Positions 11,084 to 41,100 are shown, counted from the first letter of the stretch. The stretch is DNA of 42,226 nt from an uncultured Candidatus Saccharibacteria bacterium (GCA_964559765.1 CAZLHU010000003.1:1-42226); one strand, 5' to 3'. Program-made: numbers and translations. The notes: generated by a model from the letters alone, not told the origin.

Positions 11084-11127
11084 TTAATGTTGATAGATAG
11101 GCTGCCGCAAATGATCGCCTAGTTTTT

Positions 11128-11136
11128 ATTATATCA
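11128..11136 (-). promoter_or_regulatory. Extended -10 promoter (TGATATAAT) for pilB-pilC-pilin genes
   Basis: Exact TGnTATAAT on the minus strand 44 nt upstream of the pilB ATG. Confidence 0.6.
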
Positions 11137-11242
11137 GATAATCGGCCTATTAAGGACTGTGCGCCAAAAGTTAAATTAGATGGGTCCTATAGCCTAGGAG
11201 TCCACCTATAAAACCAAGGGGCGGTATCGTCACTTATACGAA

Positions 11243-11974: not shown

Positions 11975-12046
11975 AAACTATGCAAGTTAACTGTTAATAT
12001 AATGATATATCTAATCTGTGTATTTTAAAAAAGGTTATCAACAGCC

Positions 12047-12083
12047 AAAACAAAAACAGCCTCGGATACGCCGGGGCTGTTTT
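12047..12083 (-). terminator. Intrinsic terminator between the two pilin copies
   Basis: Minus strand AAAACAGCCCCGG-cgtat-CCGAGGCTGTTTTT-GTTTT: GC-rich stem with one mismatch plus U tract. Confidence 0.75.
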
Positions 12084-12105
12084 GTAACAATTCGATTTAG
12101 AGATA

Positions 12106-14200: not shown

Positions 14201-14212
14201 GTTTTATGAAGA

Positions 14213-15528: not shown

Positions 15529-15957
15529 CTATTTGGCGAGGAGGCGGCTGACGAGTTCGACTATGTCCTTGGGCAGATTCTCTCCCTTGCGCAGATATAT
15601 GTCGACGCCAGCCTCCTTGGCTTCGGCTTCAAATTCCTTTTCTGCGTGGTCGGAAAGCATGACTACCCTCGTCTCAGACATTAGCGGATCTGCTTTGATA
15701 CGCTTCACGAAATCGAAGCTGTATCGCGGGTCGATGACGGTTCGGCCGCCGACCTTCTTCGGCAGGGATAGGTCGAGGAACACTATGCTGGGTCGCGAGG
15801 CGGGATCGACGACTGTGCGTTCGGCCGCATCCAGATCCGCAGCCACGGAAAGTTCGCAGCGGTCTTCGAACCCGTAGATCCAGAATATGTCATGGAAATA
15901 TATCCTGATTACTTCGTCATCGTCGACGATCAAAACCTTTGTCTTCTTGTCTGCCAT
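15529..15957 (-). CDS. Stand-alone response-regulator receiver (142 aa)
   Basis: VLIVDDD, IVFLDLSLP (phospho-Asp), MLS, YLRK; no output domain; start overlaps the upstream stop (TAATG). Confidence 0.85.
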   Translation of the reverse strand: MADKKTKVLIVDDDEVIRIYFHDIFWIYGFEDRCELSVAADLDAAERTVVDPASRPSIVFLDLSLPKKVGGRTVIDPRYSFDFVKRIKADPLMSETRVVMLSDHAEKEFEAEAKEAGVDIYLRKGENLPKDIVELVSRLLAK

Positions 15958-22308: not shown

Positions 22309-23736
22309 ATGGATTGGTTTATAAAACTTTTCACCAGAGAAGAGAAGATCGCTGGACTAGAGGTCAGAGACGATTATCTGCGGATGGCTTTGTTGCAACC
22401 CGGGAAAATCGGGGACAAGCCCTCCACAGAGATAAGATTTCTAGGAGAAGAACCGTTGGACGAAGGCGTTGTAATCGGCGGTTCGATAAAGGACAAGGAT
22501 AAGTTCGTTAAGTCAGTAAAAAAGCTGGTTAATAGGTCGCCTGTAAAGATAAGCTTCACGATGGTTTCCATCCCCGCTGACGGGGTGTATTCCAAGGTCT
22601 CTTCATTCCCCAAGACGATCATGGGCGATAAGCTAAAAGAATCGATGGATTTGGCTATGCAATTCCAGCTGCCGGACAAGCCCGAGGAGACTTATGCCAG
22701 TTGGGAAAAAATTGGGCCCAGCGACCGGAATGAGGTGTTGGTAGCGACTATATTAAAGAAACCCATAAACGAGCTTGTCGACGCCCTAAGCTCGGCGGGC
22801 CTGCGGGTCGTCGCCGTTGAATTCAGCGCTCTTAGCATATGCAGGTCTATGGATATAAAGGATTCCGAGACAGTTCTGGTTAGGGCGCCGCAAATCTCGG
22901 GCGTGGAAGTATTCATAGTCAAAAATAGATTACCCTATTTCGTTAGAGTTTTGCCGAAAGAATTTTTATCTTCAAAGGATCTGTTGGATAAGGAGGTTGA
23001 TAGGATAGCAGATTTCTTCGGAGCAGATAAAGGCGATATCGACCGGAGGATAGACATAAGCGAAGCCAAAATTATTGATTCGCTATCCGGCAATCCGAAG
23101 ATTGGCGAAAACTACGGCAAATGGCTGTCCAGCATCGGCATTGCGATGCGAGCAATGATCCCGCGGTCGGCGGACGACATGATCAGCCTGATGTCTGTAG
23201 GCACAGAGGACGCCTATGAATACCAAAAGGCCGTCGCCTTCTCCGAATTCATCCTAGAGAGTTCAATCGCCGTATCGCTGTTCTTCATCGCCGTCTTTAT
23301 AATAGCGTTGGCATCTCTTTCGTCGTTCCAGCAATCCGTCATCAGACAGACAGCCTCGATTTCAACAACTCCTCTGCCGAATAACTCGGATCAATTACAG
23401 GCCCAGGCCGGACAGCTTAACAACACCCTAGCGATAACAGTGGGGATATTGAGGGGAACGGTTGATTGGTCTGCCGTCTTAAAGAAACTGGATGCGGACA
23501 TAATACCCGGGATAACGTTGAATGGCATAAGCATGCCATCGCAAAACGGCACCATGTCGATCAGCGGCATCGCGCAGACAAGGGACATACTTAACAATTT
23601 CAACGCGACCCTAGAAGCCGATACTTTCTTGTCCAACGTCAATCTGCCGATAACCAATATCGATCAGTCCAATAACCTGCCATTCAATATCACCTTCACA
23701 ATCTCCAATCCACAAGCACTTTACTATGCCCAGTAA
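22309..23736 (+). CDS. pilM: PilM-PilN fusion protein (475 aa)
   Basis: N-terminal IAGLEV..DYLRMALL and A.LRVVAVE actin-like PilM features, one TM, then PilN-like WSAVL..L...I.L.......SISGIA..R..L..F...LE....LSNV. Confidence 0.75.
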   Translation: MDWFIKLFTREEKIAGLEVRDDYLRMALLQPGKIGDKPSTEIRFLGEEPLDEGVVIGGSIKDKDKFVKSVKKLVNRSPVKISFTMVSIPADGVYSKVSSFPKTIMGDKLKESMDLAMQFQLPDKPEETYASWEKIGPSDRNEVLVATILKKPINELVDALSSAGLRVVAVEFSALSICRSMDIKDSETVLVRAPQISGVEVFIVKNRLPYFVRVLPKEFLSSKDLLDKEVDRIADFFGADKGDIDRRIDISEAKIIDSLSGNPKIGENYGKWLSSIGIAMRAMIPRSADDMISLMSVGTEDAYEYQKAVAFSEFILESSIAVSLFFIAVFIIALASLSSFQQSVIRQTASISTTPLPNNSDQLQAQAGQLNNTLAITVGILRGTVDWSAVLKKLDADIIPGITLNGISMPSQNGTMSISGIAQTRDILNNFNATLEADTFLSNVNLPITNIDQSNNLPFNITFTISNPQALYYAQ

Positions 23737-24274
23737 GATCCAAACCATAAAGATAATACTTAGGAATGTGGCGGAGGCCTGCGCGGCCATAGCTGTCTGC
23801 GGGATTTTAGTGTCCGTATCCAGCAGCCAGATATCGAACATAGTCGGCTCCATCACCCAGGCCAGGGAAACATCCATGGAGGGGCAAGACCGGAGTGCTG
23901 CGATATCTCAGTTACAAAGCCAATTCGCGACCATCGATGGCAATGATGCAAAGATAAGCAATGCACTGATGCACGAAAACGACATCATCCCGTTTGTCGA
24001 CGCACTGAACTCTCTTGCTAGCAAAGATTCCGTCCAACAGTCATATAACTTCTCCTCGCCCGCACCATATGCGTCTCAGGGGAACTTAAACGTTTACAGC
24101 ATACCCTACAGCATAGGCCTTACCGGGAACGTAAACGCGTTCATGAAATATCTGAGCGACTTCCAGAGCCTGCCGTATTTCACCAACATTTCCTCGGTCA
24201 GTATATCGGCTCCATCTGGACTGGGGCAGAATTCCACTATGAACATGGCCGCAACCCTATACATACAACAATAA
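23726..24274 (+). CDS. pilO: PilO-like protein (182 aa)
   Basis: N-terminal TM, coiled coil, LTGNVNAFMKYLSDFQSLPYFTNISSV PilO-type motif; overlaps pilMN by 11 nt. Confidence 0.7.
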   Translation: MPSKIQTIKIILRNVAEACAAIAVCGILVSVSSSQISNIVGSITQARETSMEGQDRSAAISQLQSQFATIDGNDAKISNALMHENDIIPFVDALNSLASKDSVQQSYNFSSPAPYASQGNLNVYSIPYSIGLTGNVNAFMKYLSDFQSLPYFTNISSVSISAPSGLGQNSTMNMAATLYIQQ

Positions 24275-24745: not shown

Positions 24746-25225
24746 TCACTGAGATATTTCCTGCCAAGTCGTGGTCGCTATCTGCCCGTACTCATTGGGC
24801 TGGTCTAATATGACGTTGACCTGGACTTCGATGCTGTTATTAGCGACGGCACCAGTCGAATTAATTACTATAGGGGTGGATGTCGATCCAGTATATCCTG
24901 GGCCATTAAGAACACTCACTGTGGCGCAGCCTGCCGGCGGCGTTCCGCAGCCATTGGATACGAAAGGTATCGTATAGGGCGTGCTGGTCGGTGCCGAATA
25001 TGTATAGTTAACGGCAAGCTTTTGCAGGGCGTCCCTGGCCCCGGCTTCAGCGTATTCCTGTGCGGCCACCGTATTGGATTGATTGTATGAACTGGAAGAT
25101 TCATTCAAAGACAAAGCGGTTATGCTGATGGCGACGATCAATATCAAAAGGACTATGACCAATATCGTCGTTAAAGAGGCCACTCCGTCAGAATTTGATT
25201 TATATATGCCCGCTTTTTTAATCAT
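24746..25225 (-). CDS. PilX/GspK-like minor pilin lacking E5 (159 aa)
   Basis: KSNSDG|VASLTTILVIVLLILIV; A..YAEAGARDAL..L PilX-type helix; INSTG...W.EI C-terminus. Confidence 0.75.
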   Translation of the reverse strand: MIKKAGIYKSNSDGVASLTTILVIVLLILIVAISITALSLNESSSSYNQSNTVAAQEYAEAGARDALQKLAVNYTYSAPTSTPYTIPFVSNGCGTPPAGCATVSVLNGPGYTGSTSTPIVINSTGAVANNSIEVQVNVILDQPNEYGQIATTTWQEISQ

Positions 25226-25253
25226 CTTATTAGCCTTAAATACTGTCTCTGCT

Positions 25254-25781
25254 CTAATGACTCAACTGGAATGTTGTCTGATTGGTCTGTGAATAGCTCC
25301 AGTCCGGACTGGAAGAATTGTACTGCACATTCATAGCCATCTGGACACTGACCACCGTCTCCCCCAGCGTACTGTTTGTATTCTGTATATTCGTGAAATT
25401 GAGGCTGGTCACGACCACGGAGGTGGATGTCATTGGTTCTGAGCTCGATGTGCAGGAACCTCCCGCTTGTCTATATACTACGCCGTTTATCAGACAATAT
25501 GAGACCGATGCCCCGGATCCAGACACGATAGTGAGCGTGCTTGAAGATGTGCCAGCGGCGGATGGAACGGTGACCGTGCTGGCATAGCCGACATCCTGAC
25601 CCACCTTATCCAAGACGAAACGGATATTGGAGTCCACTTCACTGCTTGAAGTTATCTGGCCTATCCCTCTATTAATGGAGGTAAGCGAGGCGACAAGCAT
25701 GACCATGACGATCATAAGTATCGCCACATATATCAGGAGCTCCAACAGAGTAAACCCCTTATTGGACTTAAGCTTTCCCAT
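25254..25781 (-). CDS. PilW/GspJ-like minor pilin (175 aa)
   Basis: SNKG|FTLLELLIYVAIL; N.RF.LDKVGQDV..A; VTSLNFT motifs. Confidence 0.8.
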   Translation of the reverse strand: MGKLKSNKGFTLLELLIYVAILMIVMVMLVASLTSINRGIGQITSSSEVDSNIRFVLDKVGQDVGYASTVTVPSAAGTSSSTLTIVSGSGASVSYCLINGVVYRQAGGSCTSSSEPMTSTSVVVTSLNFTNIQNTNSTLGETVVSVQMAMNVQYNSSSPDWSYSQTNQTTFQLSH

Positions 25782-25787
25782 ATTCTG

Positions 25788-28700
25788 TTATGGGCTCCAG
25801 TTTACGACGACGTGGCTCACCACAGGAGTGGCTGACCCCGATGTGTTGCATGTGCTCGCCGAGCATATCTTGACCTGATAACTGAAGTATCTGTTGTTAT
25901 TATTCTGGGAAGGACAGCTCAACTGCATAGGCGCCGCATTGGGATTAGGGGCATACCAATTGCTCGTGCCGGCGATACCAGTTAGACAAGACGGTCCGTA
26001 ATAAGCCCATGTGCCAGTATTGCATGTCGGGTAGTTAGTCGCGCCGTTCGAGCACTTCGATGTCGCAAGTTGGAATCCGACCCATCCGCCAGTCAGGCTA
26101 CCCTGCCAAGATATCGAATTGTACGCCGCCCCCAATGTCACACCCGTGTCGAATACGGCGGACTGCAGGGTGCCGTAGCTGGGGTACCCGCCGGTTATCT
26201 GATTCGCGCCCATGTCCCAGTTATTGCTTCCTGTGGCAAGCCTAGGATTGCCGGCGATGTCAGCTGTAGAATTCACATTATAGATATTGGAATCGCTCGT
26301 CAGATTAGCTCCCGTCGTGACAGTCCCCGTGTCGGACGATGACAACAGTAGATTCGGCGATGTGCCATTGGTGAATCCCACCGTCACACTTCGGAATGAC
26401 GGGTTCGGGGAACTGGCGTCCTGGGATATATCGTCTTCGGAAGCGGCATTGAATGTCCCGGAGTAATCCGTGGTATCGCCGTTGGCTATAACATCCTTGG
26501 CGGTGAAATAGGAATCGTTGCTGTATATGCCCTCGGTATTTCCATAGAATGTGTCGTTATAGACATAGGCCGATGCGCTGCCCCCTATGTTCAGCCCGGC
26601 GCTGCTGGTGCTGTTCCAGTAATAGATCATATTGTTCCAGATATTCAATGTCTCGGAACTGGGCGGATTGTTGGCGATTATGCCCGCCGAACCCATGTCC
26701 GTGCCGATACCCCCGGAGTTCAAGCTTGCGCTTATTATATTGTCGGCGACATTGTAGGTTGACGAACTGGAGGTGTTTTGGAACGAGATGCCCGCAAGAC
26801 CGGACGGATTGCCGCTGTCCGTGACCAATATTTGAAGCCCGGTTATGTTTACGTAGTCCGTGGATGCGTTGACGACGATCCCGTTATAGCCCGAGGGCGG
26901 CTGGAGGGTATAGGCATTATTGACCCAATCCCCTGAATTCCGCTGATTGGAATTTGCCTGAGTGGCGGTAGGCGCATAAATGTTTATATAGTTGGACGGT
27001 CTAGTGGTGTATCCGCTTATGGACACCTGTGCCGTATCGGGACTAGCTGAACTTCCGTTGCCGTCGTAGTAGCAGGGGATGTTCAAGACATAATTGCCGG
27101 TAACCAGATTGTTGGTATTCATGAAATTCGTACCACTGGCATTACTCAATGCGTTACTTAAAGAGGAGAAGGCATGAGCGATCGATACGACCGTGGAACT
27201 GCTGATATTGGCGGGCGCGGTGCCTGTGGCGGTCACAAGAGTCCATACGGTAGACGAAGTCTTTCCGGAAATGTAGGCGACCTGGTTGGTGTTGTACGTT
27301 ACCGCATCGCCGACGCCCATGTCAGCCGTCGTCTGGCCGACAGAGAAAGTTCCGACTCCCCCGTTGGTAATGGTCAACGTGGGGTTTAAGTACATATGAT
27401 TGGAGGTATTCTGTCCGACCGAATAATAGACTGGGGTCGCAATGCCGCTCAATGTGTTGAAGCTCGAATACGGAGAAGTCGAAGTACCTACGCTATTAAC
27501 CGCATAACCCTCGTAATAGACGGTGGTGTTTTGAGTCAGGCCGGTGACCGACATGGTATAGACCCCCGTCGAAGTCGCCGCCGAATCAACGTTACAATTA
27601 GGCATTGAAGAAGACGTAAGTCCCCAGCACGTACCAACCGCCGTCAAAGCAGTCCCACCATTAGATGTCACGTTTGCTCCAAGCACCGCGCTACTAGTCG
27701 AGATGGAGGTAGCTGTTGGAGAGGTTAGAGTAGGAGTTTGAGCGGGAGGGCCGGCCGTCACAAAACTACTGGAAGTCGAGTATGACGTACCGGCGCTGTT
27801 CGATGCATAACCTTTGTAATAGATCGTGGTACTGGTTGCTAGGTTGGGAACGTTGACGGTAAAAGCTCCAGTGGAGGTGGCACCAGAGATAACCTGGTTA
27901 GACATAGATCCGCTGGAAAGGCCCCAATATATGCCGATACTGGTAAGCGCTCCACCCCCGTTTGCAGACACGGTGGCGCCTAAGGTTGCGCTCGTGGTAG
28001 CGATGTTGGTAACCGTGGGCAAGATAACCGTGGGCGGGATTACATTGAAATAGGTAACTATTGATAGGCTGCCATTAGTCTGGCTGGGCGCGCCAGTGCC
28101 CTGCGTCGTCGTTGCGCTGACGAGCGCCGATGAAATATATCCGGAACCGCCGCCCCCTCCGGCGCAGCCGTCGTTGTTTAGGTCGCCTCCTCCACCTCCC
28201 CCGCCGTAATAACCACCGCCCCCTCCGCCTCCGCCGTAATAGCCGGAAGTGGTGCCTCCGCCGTTCCCACCGGTTCCGGCAGCTCCGGCCGTACCGCTGT
28301 TAGATGAATCGCCCTTTCCGGCAGCTCCGCCGGCTATTTGGGTTCCGCCGCCTCCGCCAGTGATGCCACCAGCGCCTCCGCAGGCAAAGCCGATCTGGCC
28401 GGATGCACCGCCTCCGGCGCCGCCAGGGACACCGCTTTCCCAACCGCCGCCATCGCCGCCTCCGCCGCCTCCTATGATAATCGAGTTTCCTTGAGAGAAA
28501 GTGTTAGCTGTACCGAACCACGTCATACCTCCTCCACCGCCTCCGCCGTAATCGTTACTGTAACTGGTACTTTGAGGGCCTCCCGTGCCCCCACCCCCAT
28601 ATCCGCCAGAGGCGTGGGCCGATCCACTAACCCCCACCGCACCGGCTCCGCCGACTACGTAGTAATAAGTCGTACTGGGGACAAGGCCGATCAGCGTCCC

Positions 28701-31700
28701 AACGGATGTTCCGCCTGGGCCGCCTTGGCCAGCGACATAGGGATTGCCTCCACCTCCGCCGCCGACCGCAGTTATAGTCGCCGAAGTCGCCCCGGCGGGT
28801 ACGATCCAGGAAACAGTGGTGCTGGTGAATGAGTAATTGACGGTAGAAGGCACTATCGTGAGATATGGTGAATATCCGGTACCCAAAGCATTGCTCGCAT
28901 ACCCCTCGTAATAAGTAGGCACGCCCGGCGACATACCCGTAGCGGTGACCGTGTATGCGCCGGTGGAGGTGGCCGCCGAAGGAACCTGGTTAGTCATTTG
29001 AGTTGGAGATATGCCCCAATACACCCCTCTGGACGTGATCGGGAGGCCCCCTCCATCCACTAGGGTCGCGCCCAGCACCGCCGAGCTTGAGGCGATGGAT
29101 GTCGAGGTCGGGGTGGTAAGGGTAGGCGTGCCGCTGGCTACGGTGAACGTGTTGAAAGCAATCTCGCTGGTCGTAGCCGATCCGGTCAAGTTATACGGGT
29201 CAACGTCGGCATAGATATTATAAGCGGTCCCGGCTACGCCGACGGTCAGGGACGCTTGAGCGGTTGAGGTCGTATTGCTATTCATGGAACCAATCACCTG
29301 AGTGGTACCGATCTGCGTTCCGCCGGAACTCGGATTGCCGTTGTAGAAATTAACCTCAGCCGGCGCATATCCATTTCCATACAACTCGAACCAGAACGCA
29401 TCTCCGGAATCTACCGTCCAGGTTCCCGCCGTTCCTCCTGCGTTATAGGCCATACTGCCGCCCGTATAGTGTCCGCCGACGTCGGTATACAGACCTATGC
29501 AGCTTGTGTCGCTGGTGCAGTTATTGGCGTTACTTGTCACAACAAGCCAGTATTCCGTTCCGGCGGTCAGGGTGGGAGAGTTGAAGAAAGTTGATGTTGC
29601 AAACAGCGAGCCATTTGTTCCGAAAACCGCTTGGTTAAGGGTGGTGCTGGTCGCAAGCACGGTACCGCTGGGTTTTCCGGAACTGTTCGACTCTATATAA
29701 TAGTTAACGTTCGGAAGATCACTGAACAGCACCAGGTTTACTGCGGCATTGGCAACAACTAAGTTTGCCGTAGGGGTAAACGGCACAGCCCACGAGGTGG
29801 TGGCGTCATCCCCTATGTAACCGTTATTCTCCGCGCCGTTGGTGGTATCAAAGTGATTGTCCTCCTGATACGGACTGCTCGGCCAGTTACTGCCGATATT
29901 ACTCACAGCAACGGTCGTAGTGACGGTCTGGTTGTATGTCGGGGGATTAGGACTGAACGTTATACTTGAAGGACTGATCGAGAAATCGGGCACGGGCGCG
30001 GCCAGAACGGTTATGGAAGTGGAAGCAGTATTGTTGGTGTAACTGCTCTCGGGAATAGTCGAGCTTGCGTTAACCCAAGCATAGATGCTGTCCGTACCGG
30101 CTGAAGGAAGACTGAAGTTCGAGCTTACGCTAGCGGTAGCGTTTATGGCCAAGGAGGAACTGATCTGTCGCAAGGGACCCACCGCCTTACCTCCCGAGGA
30201 AGGGTTGCCGTTGTAAAACTGGACGTTGAGAGTCGGCTCAACATATAGCTCGAACCACATATTCTCGGCTATAGCGCCCCACGAGGCGCCGCTATTAGTA
30301 GAAACAGCTCCCGCTGAGCCGGAACTTGCGCCGACCCAACCGGCGTCATTGGAACCACTTGAACCGGCCCCCTCTACTTCAATCCAGTATTCAGTCCCTG
30401 CGGTAAGAATGGGAGGAGTCGGCCAGACTATGTTAAACCAGGTCAGACTGGTAGGTATGTTTGCCTGGGGTATGGTGGTACTCGCAAGGACGGGCGCGCC
30501 CGGGTAAGGCGCACCGGTATTTTGGATAATATTGAAAGTTATGGCACCGCAGGTGCCGGTGCAGTCCATATACAGGCTCATATAAGGGGCGTATGACGTC
30601 ACCGTAGGGACGAATGATTGGGCTATCCACTGAGTTGCGTAGACGCCATAGGTACCGCTATTGGTGGTGTTGTAATACGTGTTCTCTACGGCAGTGCTCG
30701 TGCCGGTAAAAGGGGTATAGTTTGCCTGGCCTATATTGCTTATGACCGCCGTAGCGGTCGCGTTCTGGTTAATATACGGGCTGTTGTTGCTGAAGGATAT
30801 ACTCGAGGAGCTCAGGGTAAAGTCGGGATAATAGGCGCTCGTGGTGAAGGTCCCGTTGCTAGTGGTCGAAGTGCCGTAGCTATTCACCGCATATCCCACG
30901 TAATCGTAAAGGGTCCCCGCCGATAGGCCAGTTCTCGACTGGGTGAATGTCCCAGTCGACGTACTACCAGTGGCAAGACAGTTGGTCGTAGGATTGGGCG
31001 TTGTCCCCCAGCAAGTGCCTTCTGAAGTTATGACTGAACCGCCGCCATTCGTTATAGTTGCGCCCAAAGTAGAGGTAGTATAGCCGATCAACGTAGCTGT
31101 AGGGCTACCGATAGTTGGGAGGTTGCTGAATGTAGTGAAATTGGAACTTGGGGAATATGCCGTACCATAGCTATTCGTAGCGTAGCCGTCATAATAATAT
31201 GTGGTGCTTGCGGTCAGTCCGGTGGTCGAATTGGTGAAAACCCCGGTAGTAGTGCTGCCGTTAGAAGTGCAGTTTGTATTAATAATCGTTGAATTGGTCG
31301 TACTCCAACAAGTGCCTTCCGCTGTTACGCTCGAATCTCCAGCGGCGGTTATGTTCGCTCCCAAGGTAGCGGTCGTCTGGGCAATGTTCGCCGCGGTAGG
31401 AGTGGTCAGGGTCGGGGCGGCGCTGAAGGTCGAAGTGATCATCTCGTCCAAAGTTGCGGTAGGATCGTCCTGAGCCAATGTTGCCTTGCCGCTAGAACTA
31501 CCTCCAGCCACAGTGAAACTTAGATACAACTCAACGTATATATATTGCCCGGCAAGGATCGAAACCGTAGAGGTCGGAGTAAAAGTCAGACTTTCTTTGG
31601 TAAGACTTGAAGGTATGTTAGTAATATTCGACGAGCTTATTAATCCGGATAAGTTGGTAACCGAAGTCACGGTAGTCGAGTTGGCGGTCACCTTAAACAC

Positions 31701-32168
31701 TTGAGCCCCGAGCACAGCGGTTCCGCTCGCGTTGGTGTCGTCGATACCGACGTTGATCGTCCATGCCGTTGCGGCATATTGTCCCGGAGTCTGCGCATCG
31801 AATATCCATCCCTTACTATCGGGCGACGTACTGGTCGCCCAAGTGGTACCGTTCGCGACAGCGACGCTCGGACTGAACTGCCAAATCGCAACGGTCTTAT
31901 CGTTGGCGATTGTGGTTGCGGTATTGGCGGAGCCACCGATGGTCGTGGACAACTGGTGCACCGTTGCCGTGCCAGATACCACCGCCGAGGCGGTAGAGCG
32001 GAAATACAACGTCTGAGCAGCAGCGGCAATAGCCTTATTGGATGAAGGGTTGAGGATACTCGAAGATCCCAAACCAATTAAAACGACTGCGACTATAATC
32101 GCCGTGGACGCAACTCTAACAGCAAATCTGAAACGGTTATTTTTGAGGTAATTGATGCCTACTCTCAT
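25788..32168 (-). CDS. Giant secreted adhesin-like protein (2126 aa), candidate pilus-tip adhesin
   Basis: N-terminal hydrophobic signal without a prepilin site; five PT...T.I..T.A.LGA....G......G..W FN3-like repeats, two CARDB-like domains, Gly-rich domain, Asn-rich beta-helix-like region, Cys-containing C-terminal module; 6-nt gap to the pilW-like gene. Confidence 0.8.
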   Translation of the reverse strand: MRVGINYLKNNRFRFAVRVASTAIIVAVVLIGLGSSSILNPSSNKAIAAAAQTLYFRSTASAVVSGTATVHQLSTTIGGSANTATTIANDKTVAIWQFSPSVAVANGTTWATSTSPDSKGWIFDAQTPGQYAATAWTINVGIDDTNASGTAVLGAQVFKVTANSTTVTSVTNLSGLISSSNITNIPSSLTKESLTFTPTSTVSILAGQYIYVELYLSFTVAGGSSSGKATLAQDDPTATLDEMITSTFSAAPTLTTPTAANIAQTTATLGANITAAGDSSVTAEGTCWSTTNSTIINTNCTSNGSTTTGVFTNSTTGLTASTTYYYDGYATNSYGTAYSPSSNFTTFSNLPTIGSPTATLIGYTTSTLGATITNGGGSVITSEGTCWGTTPNPTTNCLATGSTSTGTFTQSRTGLSAGTLYDYVGYAVNSYGTSTTSNGTFTTSAYYPDFTLSSSSISFSNNSPYINQNATATAVISNIGQANYTPFTGTSTAVENTYYNTTNSGTYGVYATQWIAQSFVPTVTSYAPYMSLYMDCTGTCGAITFNIIQNTGAPYPGAPVLASTTIPQANIPTSLTWFNIVWPTPPILTAGTEYWIEVEGAGSSGSNDAGWVGASSGSAGAVSTNSGASWGAIAENMWFELYVEPTLNVQFYNGNPSSGGKAVGPLRQISSSLAINATASVSSNFSLPSAGTDSIYAWVNASSTIPESSYTNNTASTSITVLAAPVPDFSISPSSITFSPNPPTYNQTVTTTVAVSNIGSNWPSSPYQEDNHFDTTNGAENNGYIGDDATTSWAVPFTPTANLVVANAAVNLVLFSDLPNVNYYIESNSSGKPSGTVLATSTTLNQAVFGTNGSLFATSTFFNSPTLTAGTEYWLVVTSNANNCTSDTSCIGLYTDVGGHYTGGSMAYNAGGTAGTWTVDSGDAFWFELYGNGYAPAEVNFYNGNPSSGGTQIGTTQVIGSMNSNTTSTAQASLTVGVAGTAYNIYADVDPYNLTGSATTSEIAFNTFTVASGTPTLTTPTSTSIASSSAVLGATLVDGGGLPITSRGVYWGISPTQMTNQVPSAATSTGAYTVTATGMSPGVPTYYEGYASNALGTGYSPYLTIVPSTVNYSFTSTTVSWIVPAGATSATITAVGGGGGGNPYVAGQGGPGGTSVGTLIGLVPSTTYYYVVGGAGAVGVSGSAHASGGYGGGGTGGPQSTSYSNDYGGGGGGGMTWFGTANTFSQGNSIIIGGGGGGDGGGWESGVPGGAGGGASGQIGFACGGAGGITGGGGGTQIAGGAAGKGDSSNSGTAGAAGTGGNGGGTTSGYYGGGGGGGGYYGGGGGGGDLNNDGCAGGGGGSGYISSALVSATTTQGTGAPSQTNGSLSIVTYFNVIPPTVILPTVTNIATTSATLGATVSANGGGALTSIGIYWGLSSGSMSNQVISGATSTGAFTVNVPNLATSTTIYYKGYASNSAGTSYSTSSSFVTAGPPAQTPTLTSPTATSISTSSAVLGANVTSNGGTALTAVGTCWGLTSSSMPNCNVDSAATSTGVYTMSVTGLTQNTTVYYEGYAVNSVGTSTSPYSSFNTLSGIATPVYYSVGQNTSNHMYLNPTLTITNGGVGTFSVGQTTADMGVGDAVTYNTNQVAYISGKTSSTVWTLVTATGTAPANISSSTVVSIAHAFSSLSNALSNASGTNFMNTNNLVTGNYVLNIPCYYDGNGSSASPDTAQVSISGYTTRPSNYINIYAPTATQANSNQRNSGDWVNNAYTLQPPSGYNGIVVNASTDYVNITGLQILVTDSGNPSGLAGISFQNTSSSSTYNVADNIISASLNSGGIGTDMGSAGIIANNPPSSETLNIWNNMIYYWNSTSSAGLNIGGSASAYVYNDTFYGNTEGIYSNDSYFTAKDVIANGDTTDYSGTFNAASEDDISQDASSPNPSFRSVTVGFTNGTSPNLLLSSSDTGTVTTGANLTSDSNIYNVNSTADIAGNPRLATGSNNWDMGANQITGGYPSYGTLQSAVFDTGVTLGAAYNSISWQGSLTGGWVGFQLATSKCSNGATNYPTCNTGTWAYYGPSCLTGIAGTSNWYAPNPNAAPMQLSCPSQNNNNRYFSYQVKICSASTCNTSGSATPVVSHVVVNWSP

Positions 32169-33074: not shown

Positions 33075-33476
33075 ATGAATGAATATTTATCCAATAAAAA
33101 AATATTGATAGCTGAGGACGAGCCGGCGATGCTCAATGCCTTGGTCGATAAATTTAAGCGGGAAGGGTGTATAACCATACCCGCCGAAAACGGCGAGGTT
33201 GCATTCGATTTAGCTAATAAAGAAAATCCGGATGTCGTTCTGCTCGACATCTTGATGCCGAAGATGAGCGGCATGGAAGTAATGGCAAAACTAAGAGGAG
33301 AATCGGAATGGGGCAGGAAGGTTCCGATAATAATGCTTACCAACGTATCGCCGGATGAAAAGATAATGAGCGGAGTGGTCTCAGGCGAACCGGCATATTA
33401 TCTAATAAAGAGCGACTGGAAGCTCTACGAAGTCGTTGAAAAGGTGGAGGACTGCCTAAAAAACCCGGCACACTAG
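33075..33476 (+). CDS. Stand-alone response-regulator receiver (133 aa)
   Basis: ILIAEDE, PDVVLLDILMPKMSG, MLTN, YYLIK; no output domain. Confidence 0.9.
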   Translation: MNEYLSNKKILIAEDEPAMLNALVDKFKREGCITIPAENGEVAFDLANKENPDVVLLDILMPKMSGMEVMAKLRGESEWGRKVPIIMLTNVSPDEKIMSGVVSGEPAYYLIKSDWKLYEVVEKVEDCLKNPAH

Positions 33477-33553
33477 TCCCATCACCGACGCGGAGCCGAT
33501 GCTCCGAATAAACCCGTAAACGCTGTTTATAGAGAACGCGCAGCGGGTTTATT

Positions 33554-33562
33554 TGTTATAAT
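33554..33562 (+). promoter_or_regulatory. Extended -10 promoter (TGTTATAAT) for the PAS-kinase pair
   Basis: Exact TGnTATAAT 45 nt upstream of ATG 33608. Confidence 0.55.
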
Positions 33563-33607
33563 TAAGATTGGTAAATATCTAAAAACGTCGAGTTAAAAAA
33601 TAAAAAT

Positions 33608-34222
33608 ATGGAGCACGCAAAAGACAAACAAAGCGAGTTAACAGAGTCGAAAAAACTCGCCTTGCATTACATGAAAACACTAATCGATGTCGCTCAGGAG
33701 TCGTTTTTAATCCTTGGCGCCGATCTGAAGGTGCTTTCAGCAAATCCAACATTCTATCAAGCCTTCCAGGTCTCACCGGAAGATACAGAGGGCAAACCCG
33801 TCTATGCGCTAGGGAACGGCCAATGGGACATACCAGAACTTAGAAATCTAATGGGAAGCATTCTGCCCAAAAAGAAAATAATCACCAACTACGAAGTTAC
33901 GCATGTCTTTGAGACTGTTGGCAAGAAAACCATGCTACTCAGCGCTAGACAGATAGATGCGGTGCAGCTTATCATCCTCGCCATAGAAGACATTACTACT
34001 AGGAAGGAACTCGAGAACAAGCTGGCCGAGAACGCTCAGGAATTAGAAATCAGAGTAGCCAAAAGAACAGCGGAACTTGATGACCGAGTCAAAGACCTGG
34101 AGACGCTGAACAAGACAATGGTAGGGAGAGAGCTAAAGATGATCGAGCTCAAGAAGGAGGTCGACGATCTAAAGAAATTGGTTCGTAACGGCAATGGGAA
34201 TCATAATGGCCACAAAGAATGA
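33608..34222 (+). CDS. PAS-domain and coiled-coil protein without kinase domain (204 aa)
   Basis: ESFLIL..DLKVLSAN..FYQ.F......G..VY.LGNGQWDIPEL PAS motif; C-terminal TMVGRELKMIELKKEV coiled coil; ATGA overlap with the kinase. Confidence 0.8.
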   Translation: MEHAKDKQSELTESKKLALHYMKTLIDVAQESFLILGADLKVLSANPTFYQAFQVSPEDTEGKPVYALGNGQWDIPELRNLMGSILPKKKIITNYEVTHVFETVGKKTMLLSARQIDAVQLIILAIEDITTRKELENKLAENAQELEIRVAKRTAELDDRVKDLETLNKTMVGRELKMIELKKEVDDLKKLVRNGNGNHNGHKE

Positions 34223-36198
34223 TTTTCCAAGCCCCCAAACCCCTTTATAAGTCGCTTTTTGACAATGCGCTCGATGGACTGGCTTACTGCCAGATGGTCT
34301 TCGACGAACAAGGCCATCCGGTCGATTTTATCTACATTGAAGTCAATAAAAGCTTCGAAAGGATAACGGGCCTAAAGGACGCTGAAGGGAAAAAGGTCAC
34401 GGAGCTTATCCCCGATATCTTTGCATCTAATCCAGACTTGTTCCAGATATACGGCAGGGTTTCTTTGGGCGGAAAATCCGAGCGATTTGAGACATATCTC
34501 GAACAGCTATCAAAATGGTTTTTGGTCTCGGTATACAGCCCAAAAAGGAACTTTTTCTTGGCCGAGTTCGAGGACATCACTGAGAGCAAGCGGATAGAAA
34601 AGGATTTGGAAGATTCGCGTCTCGCCGCCCAAAATGTTTTTGAGGATTTAAGTGCCGAAAAAACAAAAATAGGGGCGGAGATGGCAAAAGAAGAAGCGAT
34701 TCTGCTATCCATCGGCGACGGCGTCATTGTTACAGACGAAGGAGGAAATATTACATTGGTAAACAAAACGGCCGAAAAACTGCTTGGCGTAAACAGCAAA
34801 GAGGCTTACGGCAAAACCGTTGACGAAATAGTTCCTATCGAGGACGAGGGAGGAGTTCTGATTGCGGCGGATAAACGTCCGATGAGCGTGGCGCTTAAAA
34901 CCGGCAGCAGTATCGGCAGCAGCGCCTACTATTTCGTACGAAAGGACAAAACAAGATTTCCGGTAGCTATTTCGGTTACGCCCGTTATTCTTGACGGTAA
35001 GATAATCGGGGTGGTTGATGTTTTCAACGACATATCCGACATCAAAAAAGAAACCGAAAGGATAATTAAGGAGAAGGAGAAGGAAGATGCGCTGGTAAAG
35101 GACTTGGAGAAATTCAAACTGGCGGTGGACAACGCTTCGGACCAAATAGTCATCACCGATCCGAAAGGAACCGTAATCTATGTCAATAGGTCGGTGGAAA
35201 CCATAACCGGCTATAAGCCCGAAGAGGTGCTGGGTAAAAAAAGTGGCGCCCTTTGGAAATCGCCGATGAATTCTGACTATTATCAGAGCATGTGGGACGT
35301 CATAGAGAACCAGAAGAAGGTCTTTGCTGGAGAAATACAGAACAAAAGGAAGAATGGCCTTATATACACAGCCGCGGTCAGCATTTCCCCAATCCTCAAT
35401 AAGGATGGTGGAATAGAGTTTTTTGTAGGCATTGAACGCGATATCACTAAGGAAAAAGAAATTGACCGCGCTAAGAGCGAGTTCGTGTCTCTCGCCTCGC
35501 ATCAACTCCGCACCCCCCCTACGATCATAGGGTGGTATACCGAAACGCTTCAATCAGGAGAACTTGGTCCGATAAATGAAAAACAAGCAGATTATTTGAA
35601 AGAGATATACAAGGCCAATAGAAGGATGGTGTCCATCATCAATTCCCTGCTTAATATTTCGCGAATCGAGATGGGTACATTTGAAATCTCGGCGAAAAAC
35701 GTCAACATCGGGGATATCGTCGATGAGACGGTTAAGGAGCTCTCGAGCCGATTCAATCGTAATGTAGAATTGAAAAGGGACTATGACCCCAACCTGGGGC
35801 TATTCAAAGCAGACCCAGACATCATGCAGATAATCATCGATAACCTCCTTTCGAATGCGTTCAAATATAGTCCAGCCGAAGACACTAAGATTGAGATAAC
35901 CACAAAAAAAGATGGCGATTCCCTGATCTTAAGCGTCAAAGACAACGGCATCGGTATACCACTCAAAGATCAGAGTAGGGTTTTCGAAAAACTGTTCAGA
36001 GCGGATAATGCCGTCACCACGAATCCAGACGGCACTGGCCTTGGGTTATATATGATTAAGAAAATAATAGTGGATGGCTTAGGGGGCAAGGTATGGTTTG
36101 AATCGGAGGAAAACAAGGGAGCCATATTCTACATATCACTCCCCGCTTCCGGCATGAAAGAAAAAGCCGGCACTACGACCCTTGCGCGGATAATATAA
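34219..36198 (+). CDS. Soluble triple-PAS histidine kinase (659 aa)
   Basis: Three PAS/PAC domains; H box SLASHQLRTP, N box NLLSNAFKY, DNGIGI, FRA, GTGLGL; no TM segment. Confidence 0.92.
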   Translation: MIFQAPKPLYKSLFDNALDGLAYCQMVFDEQGHPVDFIYIEVNKSFERITGLKDAEGKKVTELIPDIFASNPDLFQIYGRVSLGGKSERFETYLEQLSKWFLVSVYSPKRNFFLAEFEDITESKRIEKDLEDSRLAAQNVFEDLSAEKTKIGAEMAKEEAILLSIGDGVIVTDEGGNITLVNKTAEKLLGVNSKEAYGKTVDEIVPIEDEGGVLIAADKRPMSVALKTGSSIGSSAYYFVRKDKTRFPVAISVTPVILDGKIIGVVDVFNDISDIKKETERIIKEKEKEDALVKDLEKFKLAVDNASDQIVITDPKGTVIYVNRSVETITGYKPEEVLGKKSGALWKSPMNSDYYQSMWDVIENQKKVFAGEIQNKRKNGLIYTAAVSISPILNKDGGIEFFVGIERDITKEKEIDRAKSEFVSLASHQLRTPPTIIGWYTETLQSGELGPINEKQADYLKEIYKANRRMVSIINSLLNISRIEMGTFEISAKNVNIGDIVDETVKELSSRFNRNVELKRDYDPNLGLFKADPDIMQIIIDNLLSNAFKYSPAEDTKIEITTKKDGDSLILSVKDNGIGIPLKDQSRVFEKLFRADNAVTTNPDGTGLGLYMIKKIIVDGLGGKVWFESEENKGAIFYISLPASGMKEKAGTTTLARII

Positions 36199-36212: not shown

Positions 36213-36587
36213 CTATCGAGATTTTTCGATAAGGCGAGCCTTCACTTTCTCGATCACCTCATTTATAGGATGTTGGGATTTGACGAAGAAGTCTTCGGCA
36301 CCCATCTGGAGCGCTTTCTTCAGACTCTCATCCTCAGCCAGGTTGGAAAGCACGAAGACTGGGATATCCTTAAGCGTGGGATCCTGTTTCAACATACCAA
36401 GCACCTCGAAACCGCTGCGTTTAGGCAGGATTAAATCTAGAAGGATAATGTCCGGACTTTTGTCCTTTGCCATATCCCACCCTTCTACGCCGTCTTTGGC
36501 GGCGAATGTTTCAAAACCGGCGTTCTGTATTTTCTCCTGGAGAACTTTGCGCAGAGCCTCTTCGTCTTCCACAATTAATACTTTCAT
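36213..36587 (-). CDS. Stand-alone response-regulator receiver (124 aa)
   Basis: VLIVEDE, PDIILLDLILPKRSG, VLSN, FFVK. Confidence 0.92.
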   Translation of the reverse strand: MKVLIVEDEEALRKVLQEKIQNAGFETFAAKDGVEGWDMAKDKSPDIILLDLILPKRSGFEVLGMLKQDPTLKDIPVFVLSNLAEDESLKKALQMGAEDFFVKSQHPINEVIEKVKARLIEKSR

Positions 36588-36645: not shown

Positions 36646-38094
36646 TCATTGTTCTATCTCCTCGACGTTTTCAGAGACGTAATGTTTCATCTTTTCTATC
36701 TCTTCCTTTGTTGCAGCCAGTAGGAACTTTATATCCGCCATCTGCGATTCCCCTGATCCGTTGTTACATGAATCCAACAGCTTGTCGATATTCTTTTCGA
36801 CTACGCCGAATCCCGTGGAGACATCCCTTCCAGCGATAATAGTCCTATTTTTTCTCTGTGTTTTGGCCTTGCGCCCGATCCACCACCCGATCAGAATACC
36901 AATAATAATAACGGCTATAATGGTGCCGAAGAATATTTCTTCGGTTATCTCTATGCCGGCGATTGTGAGAAAAGGCGGCTGTGCGATTGTGACCGAGAGA
37001 CGACTCTCCGTTGAGTTGCCGGCATAGTCAATCGCCTGAACTATCACCGTATGCGGGCCGAAGGAAAGCGAGGGCAGTACGAATAACGTGCTAGTGGTTG
37101 ATCCCACAACACTTCCATCAACAAATATCTTGTAAGATGCCACACCCGACGGCTGATCCTGCGTCGTAAACTGCACCGTCGGCGCTGAAACCTGTGTTAC
37201 CAAACCTTCTTTTATCGTAGCAATGAACGGCAATGGAGGGGTCGTATCTATAGCTATTCGATAGTTCGCCGTAGGGCCCCACCCAATGGAATTTTTAAAC
37301 CGCACGTGCAAGTACCAGATGCCTTGTTGTACCGCACCGAATATTTTGTTATTGAACAACCCTTCGGAGATGGTCGGGTTTGACTGCGGATTTTGATCTA
37401 GAGTAGTCGCAACGTCAGTTACGTCCGCTGGCAGTTGCCAAGTGACTAAAAAATTATCTACGGCGCTATACCACGCAGTCTGGTCTGGATAAAGGTTTAC
37501 TGAAAGAACCGGTGAGACGGGCACCGTGGTGGTCGCCACCGCTACCCGCTTTATCTGCGTCGGGGCCGGAGGAGGTGTCGGCGCAGAAACCACCTGGGTC
37601 GACGTAGAGCCACTGGGCGCACCGACTGTAAATAACGTGACGGTTGAGGTGGAAAGTATATTCGCACCCGTCCCGTCGCCAGCCGTAACTTCAGCGCTAT
37701 TGAAACCGGCATTACCCTTTCCCGCTCCACGGGCATTAAAAACCACGTTGAAGACCGGGAGGGAGCTGCCAGTAAATGCGTTGGTGCTACCACCAAGAAA
37801 AGATATTTCGCCCGTAGATGTGTTCACGGTCGGTTCCGCAACCCAGATATTGAAGATAGAATTGTTGGTGTTTACTTGTTCAACGTTGAAAATATTGGCC
37901 GGGTAGTACAGCGTTCCTTGCGCAGCATTGACGGGTTGGTCGCTATTTATATTGACGGTAACGTTCACAGTGCCACCCACATTCGTTTGCTGCGTGCTAG
38001 GCGTTAAGAAAAGTGTCGCTGCATTGGCAACGCCAAATGAAGACGCGAAAAACACGACTGCGACAATAATCGATCTTTTTAACAATGACATCAT
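36646..38094 (-). CDS. Membrane-anchored cohesin-domain protein (482 aa; second ATG at 38091 may be the start)
   Basis: Signal peptide; ATLFLTPS....VGGT..VTV.INS...VNAAQG.L.YP...SIF..W...P....G.ISF.GG cohesin-like pattern; P/T linker; Ig-like domains; TM IFFGTIIAVIIIGILIGWWIG; short cytoplasmic helical tail. Confidence 0.75.
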   Translation of the reverse strand: MMSLLKRSIIVAVVFFASSFGVANAATLFLTPSTQQTNVGGTVNVTVNINSDQPVNAAQGTLYYPANIFNVEQVNTNNSIFNIWVAEPTVNTSTGEISFLGGSTNAFTGSSLPVFNVVFNARGAGKGNAGFNSAEVTAGDGTGANILSTSTVTLFTVGAPSGSTSTQVVSAPTPPPAPTQIKRVAVATTTVPVSPVLSVNLYPDQTAWYSAVDNFLVTWQLPADVTDVATTLDQNPQSNPTISEGLFNNKIFGAVQQGIWYLHVRFKNSIGWGPTANYRIAIDTTPPLPFIATIKEGLVTQVSAPTVQFTTQDQPSGVASYKIFVDGSVVGSTTSTLFVLPSLSFGPHTVIVQAIDYAGNSTESRLSVTIAQPPFLTIAGIEITEEIFFGTIIAVIIIGILIGWWIGRKAKTQRKNRTIIAGRDVSTGFGVVEKNIDKLLDSCNNGSGESQMADIKFLLAATKEEIEKMKHYVSENVEEIEQ

Positions 38095-38118
38095 AGTTAT
38101 TATATCAATCTTTTACAC

Positions 38119-41100
38119 CTATTGGGAAAGCCCGGCGTCATGCAATAGGATGCTGATATCCTGCGCATCGACTTTTCCATCATGGTTCAGATCAAGTATG
38201 CGAAGTATGTTCGGATCTACAGTGTTGAAATTAGTTATGCCGGAGAGATAATCCCTAAGATACGACAGATAGATGCTTATATCCTGGACGCCGATCACCC
38301 CCGTACCGGCAAAATCTAAGCCCGGATTGGCAAGCGGAGAAACAGTGAAAGTCTGCTGGCTTGAAATACTGCTTTGGACTCCATTGTATGTTTGGGTCGC
38401 CGCTATAGAATGCTGACCATCGGACAGTTTGTCCGTGCTAAGCACGTAACTATACTGCCCAGAGATATTATTAACGGTTATCGTGCCGATCGCGACGCCG
38501 TCAACCCAAAGAGTAACCGTACCCTTAGGCATAGCATAGCCCTGCACTGTTACGTCGCTTCCCTTGCTCACTATTGAATTTAAGCCGAATCCCACCGTTG
38601 GAGCGATGACTATGTTCCTTGTGTTAAAGAGGTTGAAGTTCTGGGGCACCGCCGGTGCGTTGTATGCCTTCGTTTCTGATACAACTCCAGTCTTGTCGGT
38701 AAACACGAGAACGTAGGTCTGGCCAACCAGATAAGTGGAAGTGCTCAATTTCACTGAGAAGCTGCCGTCATTTGCCATACTTATCGGCTGTACGATCGGC
38801 GCCGCCGACGACTCCACATTCTTAATAATAAGAGAGATGGAGCCTCCTAGATAAGCCCACCCGGAGAATACGTTCGTCACCGTCGGAGGACGTCCCACCG
38901 ATGGCGCCGTCGACGGCCCAGAGACAGGCGCCGGCGGTCCGACAAATGCGATAGACGCAACATCAGTGACCCCTAGACCGGTTGATTGGGTATCTTCAAG
39001 ACCAAGCGCAACGTTTTCAGCGACAGCGTCTGTAATGGTGGTGGTCGCAATGCCATCCACGATATTGATCAACCCTCCGCCGCTGGCACTTCCCGTCAAA
39101 GTCACCGTAACCCCTTGATTGAACGAAGTGTCGATGGCATCAGAGGAATTAACCGCCTCAATATTCAGCGTTGCCGTGCCTCCGGTGGAAATCGAAGCGG
39201 GAACATTGGCGAATATGAACTTCACAGCACTGGCGGGGTTAGCTAAGACCGTCGGATTATCGGCTCCATCGGTAACGCCATTAAGTCCTCCTGGAGACGT
39301 TGGGTTGTTAGATGCGGTTACGGTGTAGGTGCCGGGCACAGTATCGGTGTACCAGAACTGCGTCGACGTGCTATTGGCCGGGATCGTAATGGAGGTTATC
39401 TGAGCGCCTCCGGCCGAAGCGTTGAAGAACGCCGCATTTGAGCTGGTGGAATTAGTGTAGAGGTAGACGACCGTACTGCTGCTGGCGGTGGTGATGTTGT
39501 TGTACTGGTCTTCGAGAGAGAGTGTGTAGCCGAGACGGGAGCCTGAATTAAGGTTGCCCGGATGATTGAGCGAAAACTTAGCGAGGGAACCAGGTAAGAA
39601 GGTTATTGCCGAAGTTGAGCTCACGTTCAGTCCGGTAAATTGAGTGTCTTGCAGGGCAAGATTGATCGTTTCAGCGACGGCGTCGCTGATAGTACTTGTC
39701 CCGACGCCGTTTATGAGGGTCACTATGCCGCCACTAGAGAGCATGCCACTCCCCGTCTTCGTCACCGTAACCCCTTGATTGAACGAAGTGTCGATGGCAT
39801 CAGAGGAATCTACAGCTTCGACATTGAAGAGGGCAGTGGTTCCAACTACAACCGTAGCGGGTACGTTAGTAAAGATGAATTTGGTAGCAACCACGGGGCC
39901 AGAAGTTATCGTAAGTGCGTCGGCTCCATCGGTAACGCCATTAAGTCCTCCTGGAGACGTTGGGTTGTTAGATGCGGTTACGGTGTAGGTGCCGGGCACA
40001 GTATCGGTGTACCAGAACTGCGTCGACGTGCTATTGGCCGGGATCGTAATGGAGGTTATCTGAGCGCCTCCGGCCGAAGCGTTGAAGAACGCCGCATTTG
40101 AGCTGGTGGAATTAGTGTAGAGGTAGACGACCGTACTGCTGCTGGCGGTGGTGATGTTGTTGTACTGGTCTTTAAGATTGACCACATATGCAGCTCTCTC
40201 CACGGTTGAAATAGGCCCAGGATGGTTAAGACTTAATGCGGCAGGTGAGCCTGGAGCAAACATAACCGATTGCGAAGATGAGACATCGAAACCAGTGCTT
40301 TGTGTATCAGAAAGCGTCAATGCGACCACCTGCGCAACATGAGTCGATATCGTTGAGGTGCCCACGCCATTTACGATGTTAACTGATCCCCCGCCAGTTA
40401 CTCCTGTTCCAGCGGCCACAAGTGTCACTCCCCCATTATAGGTTGCCGCAATTTGATTACTGTTATTCTCGGCTTGGATCGTGACAGTAAGCGGAACACC
40501 TACCGTACCACTTCCCGGACTGACGATCACAAACTTTTCAGCGGCTTCACTGACCGTGAATGTCTGGCTGTTCGAGGTTCCTCCTCCAGGAGCGGGATTG
40601 GTGACCGTCACTGGATATGTTCCGGCCGTTGTTATGTCGGAAGCGTTGATCTGGGCCGTGACCTGACTGGCGGAGACAAAGGTCGTAACTTCAGCGACGC
40701 CATTGAAGTTAATAGTCGAAGAGGCGACGAAGTTGGTGCCATCCACGGTCAGCGTGAAGCTAACTCCTCCAGCGAGAGCGGAGGTCGGCGAGGTATCAAT
40801 TGTGGTTGGGACGGGATTGTTAATAGCGAAGGTTTGGGCTGAAGACGTTCCCCCTCCGGGTGCGGGCGTGACAACAGTCACCAAAGCCGTTCCGGCGGTT
40901 GCGATGTCCGTTGCCGGGACGACGGCCGCGACCTCACCGGTAGAGATGAAGGTGGTGATGAGTGGAACTCCGTTCCAGTATATGACAGAAGATGTTGAGA
41001 AATCAGAACCATCAGCGGTCAACGTGAACTGCGGACCTCCGGCCGTGGCAAAGGTCGGGCTTATAGAGGTTAGGATGGGGGTCGTGCTTAAAACCGTGAA

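Follow-up and report, generated by a model that had tools for sequence, protein, structure and literature searches.

A cohesin-dockerin gene pair as a probable non-cellulosomal surface tether for a giant fiber protein in a Patescibacteria-type genome

Cellulosomes are attached to the cell surface by type-II dyads of an X module and a dockerin (XDoc), which bind the cohesins of anchoring scaffoldins, as in the pairing of the Clostridium thermocellum ScaA/CipA XDoc with SdbA, OlpB, and Orf2p. In Ruminococcus flavefaciens, the CttA-ScaE complex, likewise formed between an XDoc and a cohesin, tethers a cellulose-binding adhesin to the wall. Cohesin-dockerin pairs outside cellulosomes are also known, such as those of the GH84C/toxin complexes of Clostridium perfringens, and Peer et al. 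reportedly placed cohesin- and dockerin-like modules across three domains of life in 2009. Here, we describe a two-gene cassette, consisting of a giant repeat protein that ends in a dockerin and a membrane protein that carries a cohesin (the anchor), in a genome deposited as an uncultured Candidatus Saccharibacteria bacterium (GCA_964559765.1; 682 kb, 98% complete). The DNA analyzed here, referred to as the window, comprises the initial 42,226 bases of contig 3 (CAZLHU010000003.1:1-42226); positions are those of this 42,226-nucleotide (nt) stretch, and the open reading frame (ORF) of the giant extends beyond it. We consider it probable, from sequence comparisons and predicted structure, that the pair is a dedicated non-cellulosomal cohesin-dockerin surface tether for a giant fiber. 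This reading is well supported because of the stoichiometry, synteny, and co-occurrence of the two modules and the lack of glycoside hydrolases in the window.

The whole genome, searched with Pfam models and family-specific hidden Markov models (HMMs), encodes exactly one cohesin and one dockerin, and the two are in neighboring genes 24 nt apart. A synteny set of 80 loci from different species was retrieved with the anchor alignment, of which 77 are nonredundant; it spans Wolfe-, Yonath-, Nomura-, Colwell-, Staskawicz-, Uhr-, Magasanik-, Buchanan-, Azam-, Adler-, Jorgensen-, and Harrisonbacteria. Of the 77 loci with upstream sequence, 72 have a dockerin at the end of the gene that immediately precedes the anchor, and 68 of these 72 relatives have two canonical loops. 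The length of these putative cargo proteins ranges from 420 to 3,054 amino acids (aa), with a median of 1,412 aa. The window has the same gene order, with a dockerin-ending secreted protein directly upstream of a protein composed of a signal peptide, cohesin, FN3-like domain, immunoglobulin-like (Ig) domain, transmembrane (TM) segment, and helix. Among 201 genomes drawn across the class (159 genera), 56 have both modules, 21 have only a cohesin, 16 have only a dockerin, and 108 have neither (odds ratio of 18, p = 5e-18, without phylogenetic correction). Most dockerin-positive genomes in this survey have a single dockerin, and members of the anchor family occur in 65 of the 201 genomes and 60 of the 159 genera.

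The putative cargo in the window is a protein of 3,200 aa with a typical N-terminal signal peptide, and its gene starts on the contig beyond the window. Pfam searches of the full protein identified 15 IPT/TIG domains, 2 YDG domains, and Big_3_5 Ig domains, all of the stalk type, and no enzyme domain; the repeats also match the NCBIfam model CoaZ_rpt_PGGG (E value of 2e-157). The stop codon is at 38119-38121 on the minus strand, and inspection of the last 70 residues located both dockerin loops and no hydrophobic segment or TM helix. A preliminary description of the window, made from the sequence alone, had noted two EF-hand-like loops and no C-terminal TM in the giant and had placed the next gene 24 nt away, and these features hold (the anchor starts at 38094, leaving 38095-38118 between the genes). 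It had also proposed that the two proteins are a non-cellulosomal cohesin-dockerin pair by which a giant adhesin is attached to the cell, with no glycoside hydrolase in view. This proposal is now supported by the one-to-one stoichiometry, the adjacency in 72 of 77 loci, the stalk-only domains, the predicted topology, and the co-occurrence across genomes, which the description had put forward as a check. No glycoside hydrolase domain occurs in any of the window's 29 main ORFs. A cellulosome was considered and rejected on the grounds that there is no glycoside hydrolase in the window and only one cohesin and one dockerin in the genome: the only dockerin of the genome belongs to a protein whose domains are all TIG, YDG, or Ig rather than to a carbohydrate-active enzyme, and the only cohesin is on a single-cohesin protein rather than on a multi-cohesin scaffoldin. 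No adaptor proteins with extra cohesins were found in the 77 orthologous loci, and tandem cohesin genes are confined to a more divergent subtype.

In the mechanism that we propose, the 3,200-aa fiber would be exported by Sec through its signal peptide. The fiber itself carries no anchor to membrane or wall, and its C-terminal Ig-plus-dockerin dyad would plug into the single cohesin displayed by the product of the next gene, where the cohesin would sit at the far end of a type-I protein consisting of the cohesin, a flexible Pro/Thr linker, FN3-like and Ig domains, a TM helix, and a cytoplasmic helix. The fiber would thereby be held noncovalently on the cell, and the tethered fiber is probably a host-contact adhesin. 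We infer physical binding between the cohesin and the dockerin, its calcium dependence, and a single binding mode.

This arrangement resembles cellulosome attachment in that a C-terminal Ig-like module and dockerin would plug a large, secreted, noncatalytic protein into a cell-bound cohesin. A structurally solved case is the XDoc of A. cellulolyticus ScaA with ScaB (PDB 4u3s and 4wi0; PMC5141474), and a further likeness is that a single orientation can follow from alteration of one repeat (PMC5141474). The cargo, however, is a lone fiber here, whereas in cellulosomes it is a multi-cohesin scaffoldin loaded with enzymes. Anchoring scaffoldins are held by S-layer homology (SLH) or sortase attachment, whereas the protein described here has a TM helix and a conserved cytoplasmic tail, is linked to receiver and kinase genes, and is paired one to one with a nonenzymatic giant cargo. 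Unlike a cellulosome, the pair consists of one cohesin and one dockerin per genome, without a glycoside hydrolase in the window, in a lineage of Patescibacteria. As in CttA-ScaE, a nonenzymatic, adhesin-type protein would here be held in one orientation by a single XDoc-cohesin contact. However, ScaE is sortase-attached to peptidoglycan and also holds the cellulosome, whereas the anchor here would be an integral membrane protein with conserved FN3-like and Ig domains, a cytoplasmic helix, and a gene linkage to a receiver and kinases. As with the C. perfringens pairs, cohesin and dockerin occur outside cellulose degradation, and the structure that best matches the anchor model is from C. perfringens (2w1n). 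In C. perfringens, however, the modules link one secreted enzyme to another, whereas here a membrane-anchored cohesin and a nonenzymatic cargo form a conserved two-gene cassette.

Patescibacteria, which account for much of bacterial diversity, live on other cells, and little is known about how they retain their very large surface proteins. The cassette offers a concrete and testable answer for roughly one third of the genomes of the class, in which a plug and socket of the cellulosome type would have been turned into a tether for one cargo, based on an integral membrane protein. As a minimal pair of one cohesin and one dockerin per genome, it lends itself to easy testing in vitro and might serve as an orthogonal affinity pair. 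In the literature that we searched on cohesins and dockerins in Patescibacteria and outside cellulosomes, we found no published description of a Patescibacterial cohesin-dockerin cassette; a preprint on giant genes treats dockerin-like repeats of Omnitrophota, which are a different system from this cassette. Non-cellulosomal cohesin-dockerin modules are known in general, and what is new here is the linkage to a CheY-like receiver downstream of the anchor. The point specific to this window is its putative one-loop dockerin, which occurs naturally and could be used to ask what part of the duplicated module is required. The features of the locus are listed in Table 1.

Table 1. Positions of the giant, anchor, and adjoining signaling genes in the window
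Feature	Position	Strand	Basis
Giant secreted repeat protein, C-terminal 1,368 residues	38119..42226	-	Full ORF of 3,200 aa, start at contig position 47721
Ig-like module, X-module-like, directly before the dockerin	38335..38571	-	Present in all aligned tails; invariant G11, G38, and G52 in tail alignment A2
Dockerin module, two loop-helix repeats, at extreme C terminus (giant residues 3130-3195)	38137..38334	-	Family HMM, Pfam, tail profile, AlphaFold2 (AF2)
Dockerin loop 1, DFAGTGVIGVQD, degenerate	38281..38316	-	38-tail alignment
Dockerin loop 2, DLNHDGKVDAQD, canonical Ca-binding loop	38158..38193	-	Sequence, 38-tail alignment
Intergenic spacer, 24 nt, giant stop to anchor start	38095..38118	.	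Sequence
Cohesin anchor gene, 482 aa, type-I membrane protein	36646..38094	-	Sequence, homologs, AF2
Signal peptide of anchor (residues 1-25)	38020-38094	-	Sequence, AF2
Cohesin domain (anchor residues 27-158)	37621..38016	-	PF00963, homologs, Foldseek
FN3-like middle domain (residues 185-290; motif IWYLHVRFKN..GWG)	37225..37542	-	Conservation in anchor alignment A1, AF2
Membrane-proximal Ig-like domain (residues 299-370)	36985..37200	-	Big_13, E value 0.0014; OmpL47-type, E value 5e-6
TM helix (about residues 386-406), then RKAKTQRKNR	36874..36942	-	Sequence, AF2
Cytoplasmic helical tail, ~75 aa, RDV motif, near-invariant Tyr472	36649..36873	-	Anchor alignment A1, AF2
Single-domain CheY-like receiver, 58 nt downstream of anchor	36213..36587	-	Response_reg, E value 1.9e-23
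Convergent signaling block	33075..36198	+	Receiver 33075-33476; PAS protein 33608-34222; soluble PAS-HisKA-HATPase kinase 34219-36198

The cohesin of the anchor was recovered through the genome search, through homologs, and through its fold. In the genome search, the Pfam Cohesin model (PF00963) matches the window at 37651-37998 with 27 bits, above the curated cut-off of 24.1 bits. We detected 196 homologs of the anchor, many of which have a precomputed Cohesin annotation and some of which are named "cohesin domain-containing protein" by NCBI. Of 35 aligned homologs, 23 match Cohesin (best E value of 2.5e-9), and 32 match Big_13. The AF2 model, built from a 35-sequence alignment, has a mean predicted local distance difference test score (pLDDT) of 85.8; after a signal-peptide helix, residues 26 to 158 form an all-beta sandwich with a pLDDT of 90 to 96. 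A disordered Pro/Thr-rich linker (about residues 160 to 195) is followed by a second beta domain (215 to 282, with strands above 90), the Ig domain (306 to 370), one long helix from about residue 385 that holds the TM segment, and a second helix that runs to the C terminus. The best PDB match in Foldseek is 2w1n, a C. perfringens GH84C cohesin-plus-FN3 construct (E value of 1.5e-12), and the type-II cohesin dyads 3l8q and 4fl4_I also match, with the multi-domain model rather than the cohesin alone as the query. An N-terminal domain without a cohesin fold would have spoken against the preliminary description, which had suggested a Cohesin HMM search and had described the protein as a signal peptide, cohesin, linker, Ig domain, TM, and cytoplasmic helix; this order stands, except that it had counted one beta domain after the linker where AF2 shows two. 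The signal peptide and the basic RKAKTQRKNR segment after the TM helix place the cohesin outside and the tail inside by the positive-inside rule. A TM helix is present in 75 of 77 homologous anchors, and the cytoplasmic tail of these 75 homologs has a median length of 74 aa. Neither SLH repeats nor an LPXTG sortase signal were matched in the anchor, which instead spans the membrane with its TM helix and ends in a cytoplasmic tail of about 75 aa. A promoter and terminator scan gave a promoter-like match that overlaps the spacer between giant and anchor and is uninformative on operon structure.

The most invariant columns of alignment A1 are in the FN3-like middle domain, which is unique in the genome, and not in the cohesin. 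This pattern would suit a cohesin-like protein that is not the receptor of the fiber and instead helps in assembly or export or binds the cell wall, S-layer, or host, with the dockerin acting as a calcium-stabilized cap or binding the host itself. The genomes with a cohesin and no detectable dockerin (21 of 201), or the reverse (16 of 201), would also be consistent with such roles. We nevertheless regard this explanation as very improbable, given the one-to-one stoichiometry, the strict adjacency in 72 of 77 loci, and the strong co-occurrence of both modules. To our knowledge, moreover, cohesin and dockerin folds have no experimentally known partnership other than with each other.

The dockerin of the giant was identified with a family-specific HMM, for which the giant tail is the sole match in the genome (E value of 1e-17). 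A second, weak match to Dockerin_1, on contig 16 (14.4 bits), was rejected, as the family-specific HMM finds only the giant. An alignment of C-terminal 150-residue tails (A2) was made from the window protein and 37 orthologous upstream proteins, and all 38 tails match Dockerin_1 with E values of 0.01 or lower (best, 2.7e-11). The window tail alone has a scaffoldin dockerin as its best PDB sequence match (E value of 0.009), and the 38-tail profile matches the solved dockerins 4fl4_A (9e-9), 2y3n_B (2e-7), and many others. The profile also covers both X and dockerin modules of 4wi0_B and 4u3s_B (E values of 3e-5 and 7e-5), and the tail is therefore an Ig-plus-dockerin dyad, similar to an XDoc, and not a bare dockerin. 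These two chains are the X-module and type-II dockerin dyad of A. cellulolyticus ScaA, which functions in cell-surface attachment (PMC5141474). The Ig module before the dockerin matches Big_3_5 (E value of 1.6e-6). In the AF2 model of the tail (mean pLDDT of 91), a beta-sandwich is followed by three helices, as in dockerins, at positions 95 to 113, 120 to 126, and 136 to 145 of the last 150 aa, with helices after both loops; blocks of the tail score 86 to 92, except for one linker block at 67. The preliminary description had read the two-loop tail correctly, with one canonical loop (DLNHDGKVDAQD) and one degenerate loop (DFAGTGVIGVQD), and had missed the Ig module fused to the dockerin.

Loop 1 of the window dockerin has A3, T5, and G9 and keeps D1, G6, and D12. 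All 37 aligned relatives have N, S, or D at position 3 and D, N, or S at position 5, and position 9 is mostly D or N, with a few S, T, or G. Loop 2 and both helices are retained in the 38-tail alignment. With only loop 2 intact, binding is predicted to occur in one orientation, via the loop-2 helix; the second calcium site alone would be expected to work, and the module appears to be a naturally occurring dockerin with one site. Alternatively, the pair could be decaying or inactive in this genome, with the degenerate dockerin misfolding or failing to bind and the giant being released or held in another way. The loss of ligand residues that all 37 relatives have at positions 3 and 5, and most have at position 9, fits such decay, as does the Dockerin_1 score of the window tail, which is the lowest of the family. 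We judge decay to be very improbable, considering that the giant and anchor ORFs are intact, that the cohesin is 61 to 69% identical to its closest homologs, that loop 2, both helices, and D1 and D12 of loop 1 are kept, and that AF2 is confident over the dockerin. Asymmetric anchoring dockerins with one binding orientation are also known. Asn-to-Gly variants forced a single binding mode in one study (PMC5141474).

Several observations weigh against a functional tether. The window tail scores 16 to 20.5 bits against Dockerin_1 (PF00404), below the curated cut-off of 22.9 bits because loop 1 is degenerate, whereas the orthologous tails match this model. With three calcium ligands missing from loop 1, this copy might show weak binding or none. 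A Foldseek search with the tail model returned only Ig-like matches and no dockerins; a dockerin of about 65 aa is too small to drive Foldseek, so the dockerin fold is assigned from sequence profiles and secondary structure. Cohesin was not listed when the whole anchor was searched against Pfam with hmmscan, and phmmer found no match to the anchor in the PDB. The co-occurrence statistic is uncorrected for phylogeny, and what suggests an adhesin or host-contact role is only the domain content of the giant and the lifestyle of the lineage.

The genes downstream of the anchor link the cassette to signal transduction. The ORF that immediately follows the anchor encodes a receiver in 48 of 73 loci, and 65 of 80 loci have a receiver homolog within 5 kb, whereas the chance of such adjacency is about 1% (the genome itself has 9 receivers among approximately 700 genes). 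A tree placed 31 of 47 adjacent receivers in one clade with the window receiver, which is thus orthologous to most of these neighbors, and 14 in the clade of the second receiver of the window. The receiver at 36213-36587 has all phospho-acceptor residues (acidic pocket D8/E9, phospho-Asp D51, S81, and K103). In other species, too, kinase and receiver genes similar to those of the window adjoin the cassette. Three loci of homologs, found by exact protein, have the giant-anchor-receiver order with kinases near and other neighbors that differ, and two of their three upstream proteins have a recorded Dockerin_1 annotation. These conserved neighbors had been missed in the preliminary description, which had the cassette itself right. 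The linkage is strong and hints at signaling.

We therefore considered whether the anchor acts as a relay that passes fiber occupancy or load through the TM and cytoplasmic helix to the CheY-like receiver and PAS kinases for contact sensing. Such a relay would extend the tether model and requires it to be true. Apart from the recurrence of the receivers, the sharing of their two clades, and the intact phospho-acceptor residues, it is favored by the PAS kinases that recur by the cassette although other neighbors vary and by the conservation of the cytoplasmic tail (median of 74 aa, with the RDV motif and the near-invariant Tyr). However, loci of the subtype with two to four cohesins have a similar charged helical tail with no receiver found within 7 to 16 kb, so the tail is not specific to receiver-linked loci, and this lowers the odds for signaling. 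The kinase is also soluble, no known signaling domain is detectable in the tail, the adjacency could reflect only co-regulation, and the receivers could serve the type IV pilus cluster of the window. On balance, we consider a relay unlikely. Slightly more doubtful is a specific route, in which a pull on or loading of the dockerin-held fiber, for example upon host contact, would act via the TM helix on the cytoplasmic coiled-coil and then on output-less receivers and the soluble PAS kinase, steering pili or other surface machinery. If contact sensing were true, it would be a new role for cohesin-dockerin modules, in ultra-small symbiotic bacteria. The two receivers of the window (33075-33476 and 36213-36587) belong to distinct clades that both recur beside the cassette elsewhere, and in some species the second type sits directly after the anchor.

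Loci of the divergent cohesin subtype vary in organization. In L088 (G008:C6:18000-34000) and L089 (G119:C14:9000-20000), four cohesin genes in tandem come after one gene that ends in a dockerin, and the cytoplasmic tails of the cohesin proteins are long in some and very short in others. In L084 to L087, the dockerin gene is followed by a short cohesin protein of about 300 aa and a cohesin anchor of about 600 aa. In the class survey, the highest Dockerin_1 scores (47 to 53 bits) belong to four short ORFs (101 to 211 aa) on small contigs of a single genome (G022, contigs C35, C21, C37, and C5); these ORFs are possibly fragments of repeated dockerin-bearing genes.

Judged from the names of homologs and the titles of their loci, the host of the window appears to belong to a Paceibacteria/Parcubacteria-type lineage of Patescibacteria. 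Many cassette loci are titled "uncultured Candidatus Saccharibacteria" and have a Paceibacteria-type cassette with approximately 40% identity, and two loci labeled Gammaproteobacteria (L026 and L071, one of them an 886-kb chromosome) also have a Paceibacteria-type cassette at approximately 40% identity. The Saccharibacteria and Gammaproteobacteria labels on these cassette-bearing records are probably wrong.

The window holds two other giants, and the preliminary description had suggested three different attachment routes for the three giant proteins. This is plausible: the cohesin-dockerin route is supported, and the other two giants lack a dockerin and lie beside pilin-like genes and beside a receiver with an FtsX/MacB ATP-binding cassette (ABC) set, respectively. 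A type IV pilus set (7601-12828 and 22309-24274) surrounds them and comprises a PilB-like T2SSE protein, a PilC-like T2SSF protein, three N_methyl pilins, a PilM/N fusion, and PilO; this neighborhood was not seen at the three homolog loci whose gene tables were inspected. One giant (2,126 aa; 24746-32168) has an N-terminal TM or signal segment, no Pfam match, and no dockerin, and is followed by two pilin-like genes (N_methyl and PilX_N). The other (2,067 aa; 15529-22160) has FN3, Pur_ac_phosph_N-like, and Kelch repeats and no dockerin. Its stop codon overlaps the start codon of the next gene, which encodes another single-domain receiver, and an ABC ATPase and an FtsX/MacB-type permease come after that (12968-15514); this giant and its receiver form the second giant-plus-receiver pairing in the window.

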